Position numbers and translations under genes: made by a program. From the UHGV virus genome UHGV-0256785: 26,660 bases of DNA, one strand, 5' to 3'. Shown in pieces: positions 10,222-16,807 of the stretch. This DNA is from a virus. Each line of letters starts with the position of its first letter. Position 1 is the first letter of the stretch. Below the pieces are notes generated by a model. It saw nothing but the letters and a program-made list of their open reading frames with translations, did no database searches and was not told where the DNA came from.

Positions 10222-10430
10222 ATCAGAATGATATTGAAGCCATGATCCAGCGTTATATTGATGCGGAAATGGCTGTGCTGGACGGAAAATCCGTCACCTT
10301 TAATGGTCAGCAGATGACCATGGAAAATTTATCTGAGATCCGGCAGGGGCGGCAGGAGTGGGAGCGCCGCCTTGTGGCTCTGACCGTGCGGCGACGGGGG
10401 GATCCGGGGTATAAACTGGCGAGGTTCTGA
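10218..10430 (+). CDS. head-tail joining protein (lambda gpW-like)
   Basis: ~70 aa; GGAGG at 10207-10211 favours ATG 10218 over the track start 10212; C-terminal RRRGDPGY resembles the gpW C-terminus; stop overlaps the portal start. Confidence 0.7.
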   Translation: MNQNDIEAMIQRYIDAEMAVLDGKSVTFNGQQMTMENLSEIRQGRQEWERRLVALTVRRRGDPGYKLARF

Positions 10431-11935
10431 TGGCAATTCTTGATGATGTGATTGGTGTTTTTTCTCCCGGCTGGAAAGCTGCGAGGTTGCGATCAAGAGC
10501 GTTAATCCGCGCTTATGAGGCCGTGAAACCCACCCGCACACACAAAGCCCGACGGGAAAACCGTTCTGCCGACCAGCTCAGTAAGTACGGGGCGGTTTCC
10601 CTGCGGGAACAGGCCCGTTTTCTGGACATCAATCATGACCTGGTAATCGGTGTTTTCGACAAACTTGAGGAGCGGGTGATTGGTGCAAAGGGGATCATTG
10701 TTGAACCACAACCATTACTGAAAAATGGTGATATGGCTACAGAGCTGGCAATGATTATCCGTCGTTTGTGGGCGGAATGGTCTGTCAGTCCGGATGTGAC
10801 CGGGCAGCATACGCGCCCCATGCTCGAACGTCTGCTGTTGCGTACCTGGTTACGTGATGGAGAAGTGTTTGCCCAGATGGTCAGAGGCGCAGGTGCCGGG
10901 CTGGCGCGGATTGCCGGTGTGCCTTTCTGGCTCGAGGCAATGGAGCCGGATTTTGTGCCCATGCTCAGTGATGAGTCTGCGGGAATGAATCAGGGGGTTT
11001 TTCTGGATGAATGGGGCAGGCCGAAAAAATACCTGGTTTATAAAAATTATCCGGTTACCGGGCGACAGAGTGAAACCAAAGAGATCGCCGCTGAAAATAT
11101 GGTGCATCTGAAGTTTACCCGCCGCCTTCATCAGACGCGTGGCACATCCATGTTGTCAGGTGTGCTGATGCGGATCAGTGCGCTTAAGGAATATGAAGAT
11201 GCTGAGCTGGTAGCGGCGCGCATTGCTGCGGCACTGGGGCTGTATATTCGTAAAGGAGACGGGCAGGATTATGAGGAACCTGTGACGAATAAAGATAATG
11301 ATCGGGAACTGCATATCACTCCCGGCATTATTTATGACGATCTGCGTAAGGGGGAAGATATTGGCATGGTCAAATCTGATCGGCCTAACCCTAATCTGGA
11401 AACTTTTCGTAATGGTCAGTTGCGGGCCATGGCGGCGGGCACTCGTCTGAGTTTTTCCAGTGCAGCACGTAACTATAACGGTACCTACAGTTCCCAGCGA
11501 CAGGAGCTGGTTGAGTCCACCGATGGCTATCTGATCCTGCAGGACTGTTTTATTGGTGCTGTAACCCGTCCGGTGTACCGGGCATGGCTGAATATGGTGG
11601 TTGCCGCGGGGTTGCTGAAAATTCCGTCGGATGTGGATATAAAAACATTATATAACGCAACATATTCTGGTCCGGTCATGCCGTGGATTGATCCTGTCAA
11701 GGAAGCTGAAGCCTGGAAAATCCAGATTCGTGGTGGTGCGGCAACAGAATCAGACTGGGTGCGCGCCTGTGGTCGTAATCCGGATGATGTTAAACGTCGG
11801 CGCAAGGCCGAAATTGATGAAAACCGCAGGCTGGATCTGGTGTTTGATACCGATCCGGCCTGCGATAAAGGAGGTGGTAATGCTGAAACAGAACGCGTGG
11901 TTTCGCGGCGAACCGAAGGCCAGCCTGAAGAATAA
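10430..11935 (+). CDS. portal protein (lambda gpB family)
   Basis: 501 aa; position between W and the prohead protease; start overlaps the W stop (TGATG). Confidence 0.85.
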   Translation: MAILDDVIGVFSPGWKAARLRSRALIRAYEAVKPTRTHKARRENRSADQLSKYGAVSLREQARFLDINHDLVIGVFDKLEERVIGAKGIIVEPQPLLKNGDMATELAMIIRRLWAEWSVSPDVTGQHTRPMLERLLLRTWLRDGEVFAQMVRGAGAGLARIAGVPFWLEAMEPDFVPMLSDESAGMNQGVFLDEWGRPKKYLVYKNYPVTGRQSETKEIAAENMVHLKFTRRLHQTRGTSMLSGVLMRISALKEYEDAELVAARIAAALGLYIRKGDGQDYEEPVTNKDNDRELHITPGIIYDDLRKGEDIGMVKSDRPNPNLETFRNGQLRAMAAGTRLSFSSAARNYNGTYSSQRQELVESTDGYLILQDCFIGAVTRPVYRAWLNMVVAAGLLKIPSDVDIKTLYNATYSGPVMPWIDPVKEAEAWKIQIRGGAATESDWVRACGRNPDDVKRRRKAEIDENRRLDLVFDTDPACDKGGGNAETERVVSRRTEGQPEE

Positions 11936-13940
11936 TTCCTGGTTCAGAATGAAGGCGGGTCATAAAAGTGACGCAGATATTTATATCTATGACGAGATTG
12001 GTTTCTGGGGAGTTACGGCGAAGCAGTTTGTCAGCGATCTGAATGCGCTGGGTAATATCACCCACATTAATCTCCATATCAATTCACCGGGTGGCGATGT
12101 CTTTGAAGGCATCGCCATTTTTAATGCGCTGAAAAATCATGGGGCGTCCATCACTGTTTATGTGGATGGTGTCGCGGCATCCATGGCATCGGTCATTGCA
12201 ATGGTGGGTGATCCCGTCATCATGCCGGAAAACGCATTCATGATGATCCATAAACCATGGGGAGTGAGTGGTGGCGATGCGGATGATATGCGTGATTATG
12301 CCGACCTGCTTGATAAAGTTGAGTCGGTCCTGTTGCCTGCTTATGCGCAGAAAACCGGGAAAACCACCGATGAAATTGCTGCCATGCTGGCGGATGAAAC
12401 CTGGATGTCCGGTGCCGAATGTCTGGCACACGGATTTGCTGACCAGGTGACACCGGAAGTTAAGGCAATGGCATGTATTCAGTCAAAACGTACAGAGGAA
12501 TTTAAAAAAATGCCGGAATCCATTCGAAATATGATTATTCCGCCACGCAACAGTGCAACGCGTGAACCTGAAAACAAAAATACTGCATCTCAGACACAGG
12601 ATCAGACTACGGCTCCGGTTGCCACAACCGCGACTACCACAAATGCACCTTCCACAGATGAAAGCAGTATCCGTGCGCAGGTACTGGCAGAGCAAAAAGC
12701 ACGTGTGAGTGGTATTAATGAACTGTTTGGTATGTTTGGCGGGCGCTATCAGACATTGCAGGCCAGTTGTCTTTCCGATCCGGAGTGCTCGCTTGAGCAG
12801 GCCCGTGAGAAATTACTTAACGAAATGGGTAAGGAATTTTCACCATCAAATAAAAATACCCCGGCCCATATTTATGCTGGCAACGGTAATTTTGTGGGGG
12901 ACGGGATCCGTCAGGCGCTGATGGCGCGTGCCGGATTTGCTGAGCGTGAACAGGATAACGTCTATAACGGGATGACCCTGCGTGAATATGCCCGAATGTC
13001 ACTGACAGAACGGGGGATTGGGGTTTCCGGGTATAACCCAATGCAGATGGTCGGGGCAGCGTTCACGCACAGTACGTCTGATTTTGGTAATATTCTGCTG
13101 GATGTCGCGAACAAAGCCATTCTGCAGGGATGGGAAGAAGCCCCTGAGACTTACGAACAGTGGACCCGGAAAGGTCAGCTGTCTGATTTTAAAATTGCTC
13201 ATCGTGTGGGGATGGGGGGCTTCAGTTCTCTGCGTCAGGTGCGAGAAGGGGCGGAATATAAGTACGTCACCACCGGAGATAAACAGGCCACGATTGCACT
13301 GGCGACTTATGGTGAACTGTTCAGCATCACCCGTCAGGCCATTATCAACGATGATCTGAATATGCTGACCGATGTTCCGATGAAACTGGGGCGTGCGGCA
13401 AAATCCACGATTGCCGATCTGGTTTATGCCATTCTGACGTCTAATCCGAAGATCTCCACGGATAATGTGAACCTGTTCGATAAAACGAAACATGCAAACG
13501 TACTGGAGAACGCTGCAATGGACGTGGCATCACTGGATAAAGCTCGCCAGTTGATGCGCGTTCAGAAAGAGGGGGAGCGTCATCTGAATATTCGTCCTGC
13601 GTTCGTACTGGTACCGACAGCGATGGAGTCTGTTGCTAACCAGGTCATTCGCTCCTCAAGTGTCAAGGGGGCTGACATTAACGCCGGTATTATTAACCCG
13701 GTGAAAGATTTTGCGATCGTTATTGCAGAGCCTCGTCTTGATGATAACAGCCAGAGCACCTTCTACCTGGCTGCGTCCAGAGGCTCCGATACGATTGAAG
13801 TGGCTTATCTCAACGGTGTGGATACGCCATATATTGATCAGATGGAGGGCTTCAGTGTGGATGGCGTGACAACGAAAGTGCGTATTGACGCTGGTGTCGC
13901 GCCAGTTGATCACCGCGGTCTGGTGAAATGTACGGCGTAA
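11880..13940 (+). CDS. prohead protease (ClpP/S49-like) fused to a major capsid protein domain, 686 aa; start at 11880 preferred, 11949 possible
   Basis: N-terminal ADIYIYDEIGFWG...INSPGGDVFEG...MASVIAMVGD...HKPWG protease motifs; Thr/Ala/Pro-rich linker; C-terminal ~300 aa capsid-like; AAGGAGGTGGTAATG initiation region; the track ORF from 11688 is an in-frame upstream extension inside the portal gene. Confidence 0.75.
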   Translation: MLKQNAWFRGEPKASLKNNSWFRMKAGHKSDADIYIYDEIGFWGVTAKQFVSDLNALGNITHINLHINSPGGDVFEGIAIFNALKNHGASITVYVDGVAASMASVIAMVGDPVIMPENAFMMIHKPWGVSGGDADDMRDYADLLDKVESVLLPAYAQKTGKTTDEIAAMLADETWMSGAECLAHGFADQVTPEVKAMACIQSKRTEEFKKMPESIRNMIIPPRNSATREPENKNTASQTQDQTTAPVATTATTTNAPSTDESSIRAQVLAEQKARVSGINELFGMFGGRYQTLQASCLSDPECSLEQAREKLLNEMGKEFSPSNKNTPAHIYAGNGNFVGDGIRQALMARAGFAEREQDNVYNGMTLREYARMSLTERGIGVSGYNPMQMVGAAFTHSTSDFGNILLDVANKAILQGWEEAPETYEQWTRKGQLSDFKIAHRVGMGGFSSLRQVREGAEYKYVTTGDKQATIALATYGELFSITRQAIINDDLNMLTDVPMKLGRAAKSTIADLVYAILTSNPKISTDNVNLFDKTKHANVLENAAMDVASLDKARQLMRVQKEGERHLNIRPAFVLVPTAMESVANQVIRSSSVKGADINAGIINPVKDFAIVIAEPRLDDNSQSTFYLAASRGSDTIEVAYLNGVDTPYIDQMEGFSVDGVTTKVRIDAGVAPVDHRGLVKCTA

Positions 13941-13964
13941 ACGTCGCAGACAACAACTCAGATG

Positions 13965-13983
13965 GCCCGTAAGGGCTTTTTTT
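13965..13983 (+). terminator. weak intrinsic terminator or attenuator after the capsid gene
   Basis: Short stem GCCC (13965-13968) / GGGC (13973-13976), loop GTAA, T7 run 13977-13983. Confidence 0.45.
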
Positions 13984-14026
13984 GTACCTGAAATCAGCCC
14001 CACTCAGGGGCTGTGTGGAGACAGTT

Positions 14027-14350
14027 ATGGCAAAGAATTTTGTAGAAGAAGGAAAAACGGTGGCGATTGTTGCTGGTGCAAATATCAGTAGCGGAGAACT
14101 GGTGCAGGTGGGCGATATTTTTGCGGTGGCACTGACCGATATTGCGAAAGGCGAAACGGGAGATGGTATCGCTGAAGGCGTATTTATGTTGCCGAAGCTG
14201 AAAACGGATGACATGAAAACGGGTAAGAAGGTTTATCTGAAGTCCGGAAAAGTTCAGCTGACTAACAGCGGCTCTGATCCGCTGGTCGGGGTTGTCTGGG
14301 CAGATGCCGGAACCAGTGCAGAAGAAGTGCCGGTAAAACTCAATGTCTGA
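14027..14350 (+). CDS. small head protein, DUF2190-like (possible decoration or capsid accessory)
   Basis: GGAG at 14017-14020 then ATG 14027; 107 aa; sits directly after the capsid gene. Confidence 0.55.
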   Translation: MAKNFVEEGKTVAIVAGANISSGELVQVGDIFAVALTDIAKGETGDGIAEGVFMLPKLKTDDMKTGKKVYLKSGKVQLTNSGSDPLVGVVWADAGTSAEEVPVKLNV

Positions 14351-16360: not shown

Positions 16361-16380
16361 CAGGACGATACTCATCATTT

Positions 16381-16404
16381 GCCCCGGTTATCCGGGGCTT
16401 TTTT
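16381..16404 (+). terminator. intrinsic terminator after the major tail gene
   Basis: Stem GCCCCGG (16381-16387) / CCGGGGC (16392-16398), loop TTAT, T6 run. Confidence 0.65.
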
Positions 16405-16417
16405 GCAGGTGGAGAAC

Positions 16418-16807
16418 ATGATGCTTCTGAAACAGGGCACGTTTAATTATGAAAAACAGTCCGTGGTGCTCAGTGAGCTGTCCGGGCTGCAGAGAATTGA
16501 ATATCTGGCGTTTGTTCAGCAGCGAACGGCAAAGTTTGATGCACAGGAGGGAGAACTGCCGGAGGCTGAACGACAGATTGCTTTTCTGCGGATGGGGATG
16601 GATATCAATGCCTGGCTGGTTTCCCGCTCACTGTGGAATGCGGATCAGTCTCAGGATGTGGAGGCACTTTGCGCATCCGTTATTACAACATGGTCGTATG
16701 ATGCCCTCGGTGCGGGGGCGGAGATGGTTCTGTCGCTGAGCAGTATGGGGGCCATTGAGAATGCCGGGGATGATGATCATGAGGCGCTGACGCCGGAAAA
16801 GTCCTGA
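16418..16807 (+). CDS. G: tail assembly chaperone G
   Basis: ~129 aa; VVLSELSGLQRIEYLAF resembles the lambda G N-terminus; the track start 16379 (TTG) lies inside the terminator hairpin, so ATG 16418 or 16421 is preferred. Confidence 0.8.
   Translation: MMLLKQGTFNYEKQSVVLSELSGLQRIEYLAFVQQRTAKFDAQEGELPEAERQIAFLRMGMDINAWLVSRSLWNADQSQDVEALCASVITTWSYDALGAGAEMVLSLSSMGAIENAGDDDHEALTPEKS

Follow-up and report, generated by a model that had tools for sequence, protein, structure and literature searches.

In the virus genome UHGV-0256785, of which a stretch of 26,660 nt (the window) was analysed, a single open reading frame at 11880..13940 of the plus strand (686 aa, 74.8 kDa; the frame is open from 11688) encodes one chain in which an N-terminal serine protease of ClpP fold (Ser101/His124/Glu173) is joined, through a flexible linker and a central region of helices, to a shell domain of HK97 fold at the C-terminus. 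By analogy to phages Gifsy-2, HK97, and lambda, from which its processing is deduced, the product is very probably a self-processing capsid polyprotein of Gifsy-2 type. The arrangement of protease, scaffold, and capsid in one fusion is real but already known: it was first studied, by experiment, in the Salmonella phage Gifsy-2, it has its own curated family at NCBI as well as a PHROG, and the exact protein is named in NCBI. The initial annotation of this DNA, which had placed protease and capsid in one 686 aa ORF at 11880-13940, pointed to the same ORF as was recovered here. The features of this region are as follows (with the evidence in brackets):

10430..11935, plus strand: portal protein gene of the lambda gpB family, the 3' end of which bears the ribosome-binding site and start of the fusion gene (Pfam Phage_portal_2, TIGR01539)
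11868..11882, plus strand: ribosome-binding site AAGGAGG and start codon ATG, within the 3' end of the portal gene (sequence, mEp460, PGAP)
11880..13940, plus strand: whole gene of the ClpP-like prohead protease/scaffold/major capsid polyprotein (ORF, NF045540, PHROG 133)
11940..12479, plus strand: protease domain of ClpP fold, residues ~21-200 (Pfam, NCBIfam, AF2, Foldseek)
12546..12653, plus strand: disordered, hypervariable Thr/Ala/Pro-rich linker, residues 223-258 (composition, AF2, family alignment)
12660..13058, plus strand: central helical region, residues ~261-393, a presumed scaffolding or delta-like domain (AF2, conservation)
13059..13937, plus strand: major capsid protein domain, residues ~394-686, ~32 kDa, HK97 fold of the Mu gpT/Phage_capsid_4 type (Pfam, profile, AF2, Foldseek)
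13964..13987, plus strand: putative terminator, a GC hairpin with a T-run just 3' of the stop codon (pattern scan)
14027..14350, plus strand: head decoration (cement) protein gene, 107 aa, adjoining the capsid gene downstream (Pfam, PHROG)

The protein matches the NCBIfam model NF045540 (ClpP-like prohead protease/major capsid protein fusion protein) from end to end, with residues 32-685 aligned to positions 2-651 of 652 and a score of 991.4 bits vs. a cut-off of 475, and it matches PHROG 133 over its full length (1179 bits). A 100% identical protein of E. coli (P0002) already carries the NF045540 name in NCBI. A second type of prohead protease/major capsid fusion, NF045541, is matched by residues 226-683 only, at 402 bits and thus below its cut-off of 525; it is a sister family, with scaffold and capsid in common but a different protease part. 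The gene was found in 2074 of the 5426 complete E. coli genomes and also occurs in isolated plaque-forming phages, e.g., cdtI and mEp460, so that we have a functional fusion before us rather than a pseudogene. That a frameshift, deletion, or sequencing error joined separate protease and capsid genes in this prophage has practically no probability left. Frame-fusing indels in this region do exist in databases, as evidenced by the 1159 aa proteins discussed below, but the same full-length layout recurs in thousands of genomes and in viable phage isolates, is captured by both curated full-length models, and is kept by over 100 representatives of 50%-identity clusters, which are 34-60% identical. 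This conservation across diverged, viable phages refutes the artefact explanation. The 1159 aa database proteins, which read as a fusion of portal, protease, and capsid, were rejected as a real triple fusion; their frame changes at different places in different records, and therefore we take them as products of indels or sequencing errors.

The assignment of the N-terminal domain to ClpP-type proteases is based on several lines of evidence. Residues 45-191 match Pfam CLP_protease (1.6e-36), and the NCBIfam model NF045542 of the ClpP-related head maturation protease is matched with 224 bits vs. a cut-off of 120. The AlphaFold2 (AF2) model of this domain has a pLDDT above 90 and superimposes in Foldseek on ClpP with a target TM of ~0.8 and an rmsd of ~2 A, while the alignment to ClpP of the PDB displays the GxAASMA and MIHxP motifs. 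Ser101 and His124 could be assigned as catalytic, and Glu173 occupies the position of the catalytic Asp of ClpP; the first two are present in all 53 diverse fusion homologs compared, and an acidic residue at 173 in 50 of them. Identity with cellular ClpP was rejected, since the fold is shared but the best cellular ClpP model of NCBIfam scores only 79.8 bits vs. a cut-off of 249. The initial annotation had described the protease as ClpP/S49-like. While the ClpP type (S14) holds, the S49 type (that of lambda gpC and SppA) does not, its sole match, SppA_dom, being a weak one (22.7 bits vs. a cut-off of 155).

The segment between the protease and capsid domains (residues ~201-393, ~190 residues) was initially seen as a Thr/Ala/Pro-rich linker. 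Such a linker is present, with 30% Thr, 16% Ala, and 8% Pro in residues 226-262, and is disordered at residues 223-258 in the AF2 model (pLDDT <50); it shows the lowest conservation and the most indels across the family, and a search of its DNA for tandem repeats found none. The middle of the protein is, however, more than a linker, as it also contains conserved, confidently predicted helices (261-284, 291-299, 305-319, 338-351, 367-376, and 387-396) that form part of a scaffold-like domain. This central region is moderately conserved, with R275 invariant and P322 nearly so, and lies N-terminal to the point at which stand-alone capsid proteins of the Mu gpT type start. A second stretch predicted as disordered (324-335) separates helices 305-319 and 338-351, and both disordered segments are candidate processing regions according to the model. 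The whole segment of residues ~201-393 aligns throughout with the Gifsy-2 protein and corresponds to its ~200-residue central domain, a presumed scaffolding domain; the same role is presumed here by analogy to Gifsy-2 and HK97.

The capsid fold proposed initially for the C-terminal domain is supported by concordant results of Pfam, AF2, Foldseek, and profile searches; the domain searches and structure prediction by which the initial annotation was to be checked confirm both the ClpP and the HK97 fold. Residues 388-683 match Pfam Phage_capsid_4 (6e-54), and Mu-like_gpT is matched as well. A search of PDB sequences with the single sequence gave ClpP only, and a profile of residues 321-686 was required to detect the solved Mu GpT-domain capsid proteins 8rkc and 8rkx (E 2.8e-15). 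Residue 11 of these chains aligns to about residue 405, and the homology to solved capsid proteins of this type begins at about residue 395. Because ClpP chains swamped the PDB fold search with the full-length model, residues 261-686 were modelled separately (pLDDT 90 for the capsid domain), and this model retrieved the capsids of HK97, D3, and other phages, as well as encapsulins, with a probability of 1.00 in Foldseek. When the remaining ORFs of the window were scanned against Pfam, NCBIfam, and PHROGs, no other capsid or scaffold gene was matched, in agreement with the initial claim that neither has a separate gene. For annotation purposes, the fusion gene is the major capsid gene of this prophage, although a label such as "Clp protease", "head maturation protease", or "scaffold protein" is all that many records give it. 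Classifiers that go by the capsid can overlook fusion genes of this kind; Gifsy-2 is one of six out of 37 phages for which no HK97-fold major capsid protein (MCP) was obtained (PMC8814770).

The start codon of the gene lies within the portal gene. AAGGAGG at 11868-11874 is followed after 5 nt by the ATG at 11880, and since the portal ORF ends at 11935, the two genes overlap by 56 nt (11880-11935), exactly as the initial annotation had it. In GenBank, the mEp460 gene is annotated with a start at the equivalent of the second Met (M24); here, this would correspond to translation from the ATG at 11949 and to a 663 aa product with no portal overlap; the matches to NF045540 and NF045542, which begin only at residue 32, are in line with such a start. 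Nevertheless, we consider it highly unlikely. The ATG at 11949 is not preceded by a Shine-Dalgarno (SD) sequence, while a near-perfect one stands ahead of 11880; mEp460 itself retains the same SD sequence, followed by GTG as the start codon at the equivalent position. Moreover, sequence conservation reaches upstream of M24, where an NSW[FY] motif is conserved, M24 itself is Ile in Gifsy-2, and for an E. coli prophage of 99% identity, RefSeq/PGAP selects the same upstream start. The conservation of the SD and start, the PGAP call, and the conservation upstream of M24 together favour the longer form over the shorter mEp460 call.

The closest experimentally studied relative of the gene is the "tripartite capsid gene" STM1034.3n of Gifsy-2, the product of which is 69% identical over 684 residues and has the same three-part layout. 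The Gifsy-2 gene is reportedly the subject of an experimental study by Effantin et al. 2010 (Virology 402:355). As in our case, it overlaps the portal gene, has a homologous decoration gene behind it, and is part of a collinear late operon, while the linker differs in sequence and length and the tail-tip genes of the window are far closer to those of lambda than the Gifsy-2 ones are. The decoration gene of the window (Pfam Phage_cement_2, 2.4e-19; PHROG 122 'head decoration', 5.5e-45), the ATG of which is preceded by GGAGA, encodes a protein 62% identical to that of Gifsy-2, and its position immediately downstream of the fusion gene, with lambda-family terminase and portal genes upstream, is that of the Gifsy-2-type head module. 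In mEp460, a rho-independent terminator is annotated at the position matching the hairpin at 13964..13987. According to PMC12315714, citing Effantin et al. 2010, the prohead protease and coat genes of Gifsy-2 are fused; the capsid of this phage is T=7 (PMC8814770), and its decoration protein is trimeric and located at the 3-fold axes (PMC8538268).

Phages cdtI, mEp460, Ayreon, Tritos, and phi458 and many E. coli and Shigella prophages carry the same gene, with an identity of ~91% at the nt and ~89-90% at the aa level, and share the order of head and tail genes; the copies of E. coli phages and prophages differ only allelically, in the first ~16 residues and in the linker, giving variants of 675, 686, and 690 aa. 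Similar fusions occur outside these hosts. In Pseudomonas phage MD8, gp5 is described as uniting protease, scaffold, and MCP in a single gene (PMC8508860), and of the siphovirus-type Paracoccus prophages in another analysis, 34% had the same fusion (PMC6536676). The MD8 and Paracoccus (~700 aa) proteins likewise combine a ClpP-type protease with a Mu gpT-type capsid, a scaffold being described for MD8 (PMC8508860, PMC6536676), but come from other hosts and are more distant in sequence; full-length Pseudomonas homologs are up to 57% identical. The shell domain is homologous to the gpT type (E 2.8e-15, as given above) known from Mu (I/Z and T) and from GpT-domain capsid proteins with solved structures (8rkc, 8rkx, and 9jod). 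In those systems, the capsid protein forms a chain of its own of ~304 aa; here it makes up the C-terminal 43% of a polyprotein. With HK97 gp4/gp5, the likeness in Foldseek concerns the shell domain. In HK97, an N-terminal scaffold-like extension of the coat protein is removed by a co-encapsidated protease, as presumed here, and a separate scaffold gene is likewise absent; the HK97 protease is, however, encoded by its own gene and belongs to the herpesvirus-like S78 family, not to the ClpP fold, and the head is stabilised by covalent chainmail rather than by a decoration protein.

Based on Gifsy-2, HK97, and lambda, the assembly may be envisaged as follows. About 415 copies of the polyprotein would come together on the portal to give a T=7 prohead, with the lattice built by the shell domains and the scaffold and protease parts facing inward. 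As every subunit carries its own scaffold and protease, a separate targeting signal would not be needed and their ratio to the shell would be fixed at 1:1. The family is a neat model of viral co-assembly of shell, scaffold, and protease in such a ratio. After enclosure, the proteases would remove the N-terminal ~390 residues, including the protease and scaffold; the fragments would exit the shell, leaving behind mature coat protein of ~32-38 kDa. Terminase would then package DNA, the shell would expand, and trimers of the decoration protein (14027-14350) would attach to it and stabilise it in the manner of lambda gpD. A literature search for virion proteomics of the family gave nothing usable on the cleavage site. 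The 5- and 6-fold capsomers of a prohead do not match the usual 7-fold ring of ClpP.

The gene could also work as a nested system like lambda C/Nu3 or Mu I/Z, in which an internal in-frame start gives a protease-less scaffold-capsid or capsid-only product and most shell subunits lack the protease. Nesting has precedents: lambda Nu3 lies within C, and Mu and P2 provide further cases. Moreover, 415 proteases per head would far exceed HK97 usage, and the sharing of only residues 226-683 with NF045541 indicates that scaffold and capsid form a separable unit. Yet we regard such a system as improbable: in the linker and central region, SD-like internal sites are present but differ between the window, mEp460, and Gifsy-2, and no SD-matched internal in-frame ATG, GTG, or TTG is conserved between the three, in a comparison of sequences that detects canonical but not weak or leaderless initiation. 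There is a similarly slim chance that the gene is not expressed solely as one 75-kDa chain, and that internal initiation of an unconserved or non-canonical kind, or partial processing subject to regulation, mixes protease-bearing and protease-less subunits; the hypervariable linker might then tune the number of active ClpP-fold domains that pair in the prohead. If true, this would add a new detail to what is a known system rather than reveal a new one.

The head layout differs from lambda C/Nu3/D/E, as was recognised initially: here, one fused protease-scaffold-capsid gene is followed by the decoration gene, while in lambda the protease is of the S49 (SppA-like) type and the separate capsid gene E comes after D. 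Tblastn of the fusion protein against lambda gave no match to C, Nu3, D, or E. Common to both are a terminase and a portal of the lambda families, an overlap between the genes of portal and protease (20 nt between lambda B and C), a protease joined in frame to the scaffold, and stabilisation of the T=7 head, as presumed here, by a decoration protein. The initial annotation went further and derived the head from a different lineage than a "lambda-identical" tail. The non-lambda layout stands, but the head is not wholly foreign, since TerL is of the lambda gpA family and the portal of the gpB family (with aa identities of 24% and 21%, in partial alignments only) and since lambda, too, has the overlap of portal and protease genes. 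Nor is the tail identical to that of lambda: only the part at 20053-25059, running from the end of H through M, L, K, and I and covering most of J, is close to it, with 92.6% nt identity, while the aa identity is 50-55% for Z, U, and V, 30% for G, and 27% for H. The same head-tail block is present in cdtI, mEp460, Ayreon, Tritos, and others (head 84-88% nt, tail 94-95% nt) and is collinear with that of Gifsy-2 (40-77% aa), and it is an established late operon of the cdtI/mEp460/Gifsy-2 type rather than a one-off mosaic.

One open reading frame, 686 codons long (window 11880..13940, +), encodes a prohead protease and a major capsid protein in one chain; this fusion is real, was correctly recognised in outline in the initial annotation, and is already known. 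The Pfam search placed a CLP_protease domain at residues 45-191 (E 1.6e-36) and a Phage_capsid_4 domain at residues 388-683 (E 6e-54), confirming that the C-terminal part is capsid-like, and indicated a weaker match to Mu-like gpT. The protein matches end to end the NCBIfam family of such fusions, NF045540 (991 bits vs. the curated cut-off of 475), scores above the cut-off of NF045542 ("head maturation protease, ClpP-related"), and matches PHROG 133 over its full length (1179 bits). No second capsid or scaffold gene was found among the ORFs of the window, in agreement with the original proposal.

A 100% identical 686-aa protein, P0002, is present in NCBI and UniRef, already named ClpP-like prohead protease/major capsid protein fusion protein. 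The gene occurs in 2074 of 5426 complete E. coli genomes, and among the matches listed the E. coli copies are all annotated in this way. Full-length matches (coverage of at least 80%) were found in 80 phage records, including those of Klebsiella and Pseudomonas phages. Among proteins representing 50%-identity clusters, 7551 match at E <= 1e-30, and the majority of the top 150 of these are full-length fusions of 640-740 aa with 34-60% identity. Conservation of the fusion in viable phages excludes the interpretation of the single ORF as a pseudogene or an assembly artefact. The same architecture was independently described for gp5 of Pseudomonas phage MD8 (PMC8508860) and in 34% of the Paracoccus siphovirus-type prophages analysed (PMC6536676). 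The protein of Salmonella phage Gifsy-2, for which Effantin et al. are cited in PMC12315714, PMC8538268, and PMC8814770, is 69% identical over 684 residues, and the Gifsy-2 capsid is listed as T=7 (PMC8814770). The prohead protease and coat genes of Gifsy-2 are described as fused (PMC12315714), and its decoration protein as a trimer located at the 3-fold axes (PMC8538268). Names given to the gene in phage records are inconsistent ('head maturation protease', 'protease/scaffold protein', 'Nu3', 'preconnector protease C', 'Major head protein').

The AlphaFold2 model of the fusion protein, obtained with 53 diverse homologs as an input, has a mean pLDDT of 85.6 and comprises the following segments.

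Segments of the fusion protein in the AlphaFold2 model
Residues 21-200: confident alpha/beta domain
Residues 223-258: disordered Thr/Ala/Pro-rich stretch
Residues 261-319: three confident helices
Residues 324-335: second disordered stretch
Residues 338-396: three more helices (338-351, 367-376, and 387-396)
Residues ~400-686: mixed alpha/beta domain reaching the C-terminus

The model of the N-terminal domain matches solved ClpP structures (target TM ~0.8, rmsd ~2 A). In the 53 fusion homologs used to assess conservation (33-52% identity), Ser101 and His124 are invariant, and residue 173, which corresponds to the catalytic Asp of ClpP when the motifs are aligned, is Glu or Asp in 50. Residues 261-686, modelled separately (pLDDT 90.2), match HK97, D3, and other phage capsid proteins as well as encapsulins with a probability of 1.00. 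A profile of residues 321-686 finds the solved Mu GpT-domain capsid proteins 8rkc and 8rkx (E 2.8e-15); chain residue 11 of these structures aligns with approximately residue 405, and thus a stand-alone capsid protein of the Mu GpT type would start at about residue 395.

The region between the two domains had been taken for a Thr/Ala/Pro-rich linker. While the disordered stretch 223-258 is indeed of such composition (30% Thr, 16% Ala, 8% Pro), residues ~201-393 are not a linker alone but a conserved helical region, confidently folded in the model, in which R275 is invariant and P322 nearly invariant in the homolog alignment. The Gifsy-2 protein, as described by Effantin et al., reportedly consists of a ClpP-like protease, a central domain of ~200 residues with a possible scaffolding role, and a C-terminal major capsid protein; its central domain corresponds to residues ~201-393 here. 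The sister family NF045541 has residues 226-683 in common with our protein and does not share the protease, which suggests that the central and shell domains are a unit comparable to the HK97 delta domain and shell, with the protease joined on.

What the sequence and the models show is a one-chain layout with intact catalytic residues, two folds, and two disordered segments, together with a downstream decoration gene and no separate scaffold or capsid gene. By analogy to Gifsy-2, HK97, and lambda, the polyprotein may co-assemble on the portal such that its protease and central domain lie in the interior, and the enclosed proteases would then cut off the first ~320-390 residues. DNA packaging would lead to shell expansion, and decoration trimers, for which the gene is downstream (14027-14350; Phage_cement_2, PHROG "head decoration"), would stabilise the shell. 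The mature coat protein would be of ~38 kDa upon cleavage in the disordered segment 324-335, or of ~32 kDa if it started near residue 394. A nested internal start, like that of lambda Nu3, finds no support at the sequence level: none of the internal starts that have a Shine-Dalgarno match is conserved across the window, mEp460, and Gifsy-2.

The fusion gene ATG at 11880 is preceded at a distance of 5 nt by AAGGAGG (11868-11874). The portal ORF, which is in a different frame, ends at 11935, which gives the 56-nt overlap originally noted; lambda has a 20-nt overlap of its own protease gene, C, with portal gene B. Initiation at the second in-frame ATG (11949) would agree with the GenBank record of mEp460, where the gene starts at the second Met. 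However, it is unlikely, since no Shine-Dalgarno sequence accompanies this ATG, RefSeq uses ATG 11880 in an E. coli prophage of 99% identity, and mEp460 itself carries the same AAAGGAGG, behind which a GTG stands at the position corresponding to 11880, 66 nt upstream of the annotated start (4286-4352 of its record, L002); in addition, the motif NSW[FY] 5' of the second Met is conserved, and this Met is replaced by Ile in Gifsy-2. The frame of the fusion gene is open for 64 codons 5' of the ATG, within the portal gene (window 11688-11935). Several 1159-aa 'portal+protease+capsid' database proteins (P0049, P0053, P0059) switch from the portal to the fusion frame at positions that vary by record, and therefore do not look like true triple fusions but like the outcome of independent events, either 1-nt indels or sequencing errors.

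The head module, proposed to come from a lineage other than that of the tail, is not entirely foreign to lambda: terminase and portal are members of the gpA and gpB families of lambda (Pfam), but are only 24% and 21% identical to their lambda counterparts, in partial alignments only. The tail had been described as lambda-identical, which is not the case. Only window 20053-25059, comprising the last ~140 nt of tape-measure gene H, M, L, K, I, and most of J, aligns with lambda in blastn (92.6% nt identity), while amino acid identities are 50-55% for Z, U, and V, 30% for G, and 27% for H. This stretch is a mosaic joint with lambda, the upstream Z to H products being only 27-55% identical. The same head and tail block is present in cdtI, mEp460, Ayreon, Tritos, phi458, and others (head 84-88% nt, tail 94-95% nt), and Gifsy-2 is collinear with it throughout; judging from these comparisons, the head-tail combination is not peculiar to this prophage. 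A pair of tail assembly chaperone genes homologous to lambda G/T (16379-17145) has the usual layout of a candidate programmed -1 frameshift.

Between the capsid and decoration genes, a GC hairpin and T-run (13964-13987) resemble a terminator, and a rho-independent terminator is annotated at the same position in mEp460. The hairpin might adjust how much downstream transcript is made relative to that of the capsid gene, or Q antitermination might let transcription pass through it. The 91-aa ORF at 14343-14618 matches the Pfam family 'Gifsy-2', described as 'ATP-binding sugar transporter from pro-phage', and its homolog is named 'DNA breaking-rejoining protein' in RefSeq. Given where it lies and a weak match to Phage_attach, the ORF may encode a protein for head-tail joining, similar to lambda FII, and so both database names look misleading. 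Directly 3' of the Q antiterminator ORF (1458-1853), Rfam matches above the gathering score to c4-a1b1, isrK (Hfq-binding sRNA), and C4 antisense RNA were found at 1881-2081; by these sequence matches, this is a regulatory RNA module of P1/P7 c4 type or IsrK type of a lambdoid prophage. The genes for tRNA-Thr(TGT) and tRNA-Gly(TCC), next to each other at 4487-4640, separate the DNA methyltransferase gene from the lysis genes.
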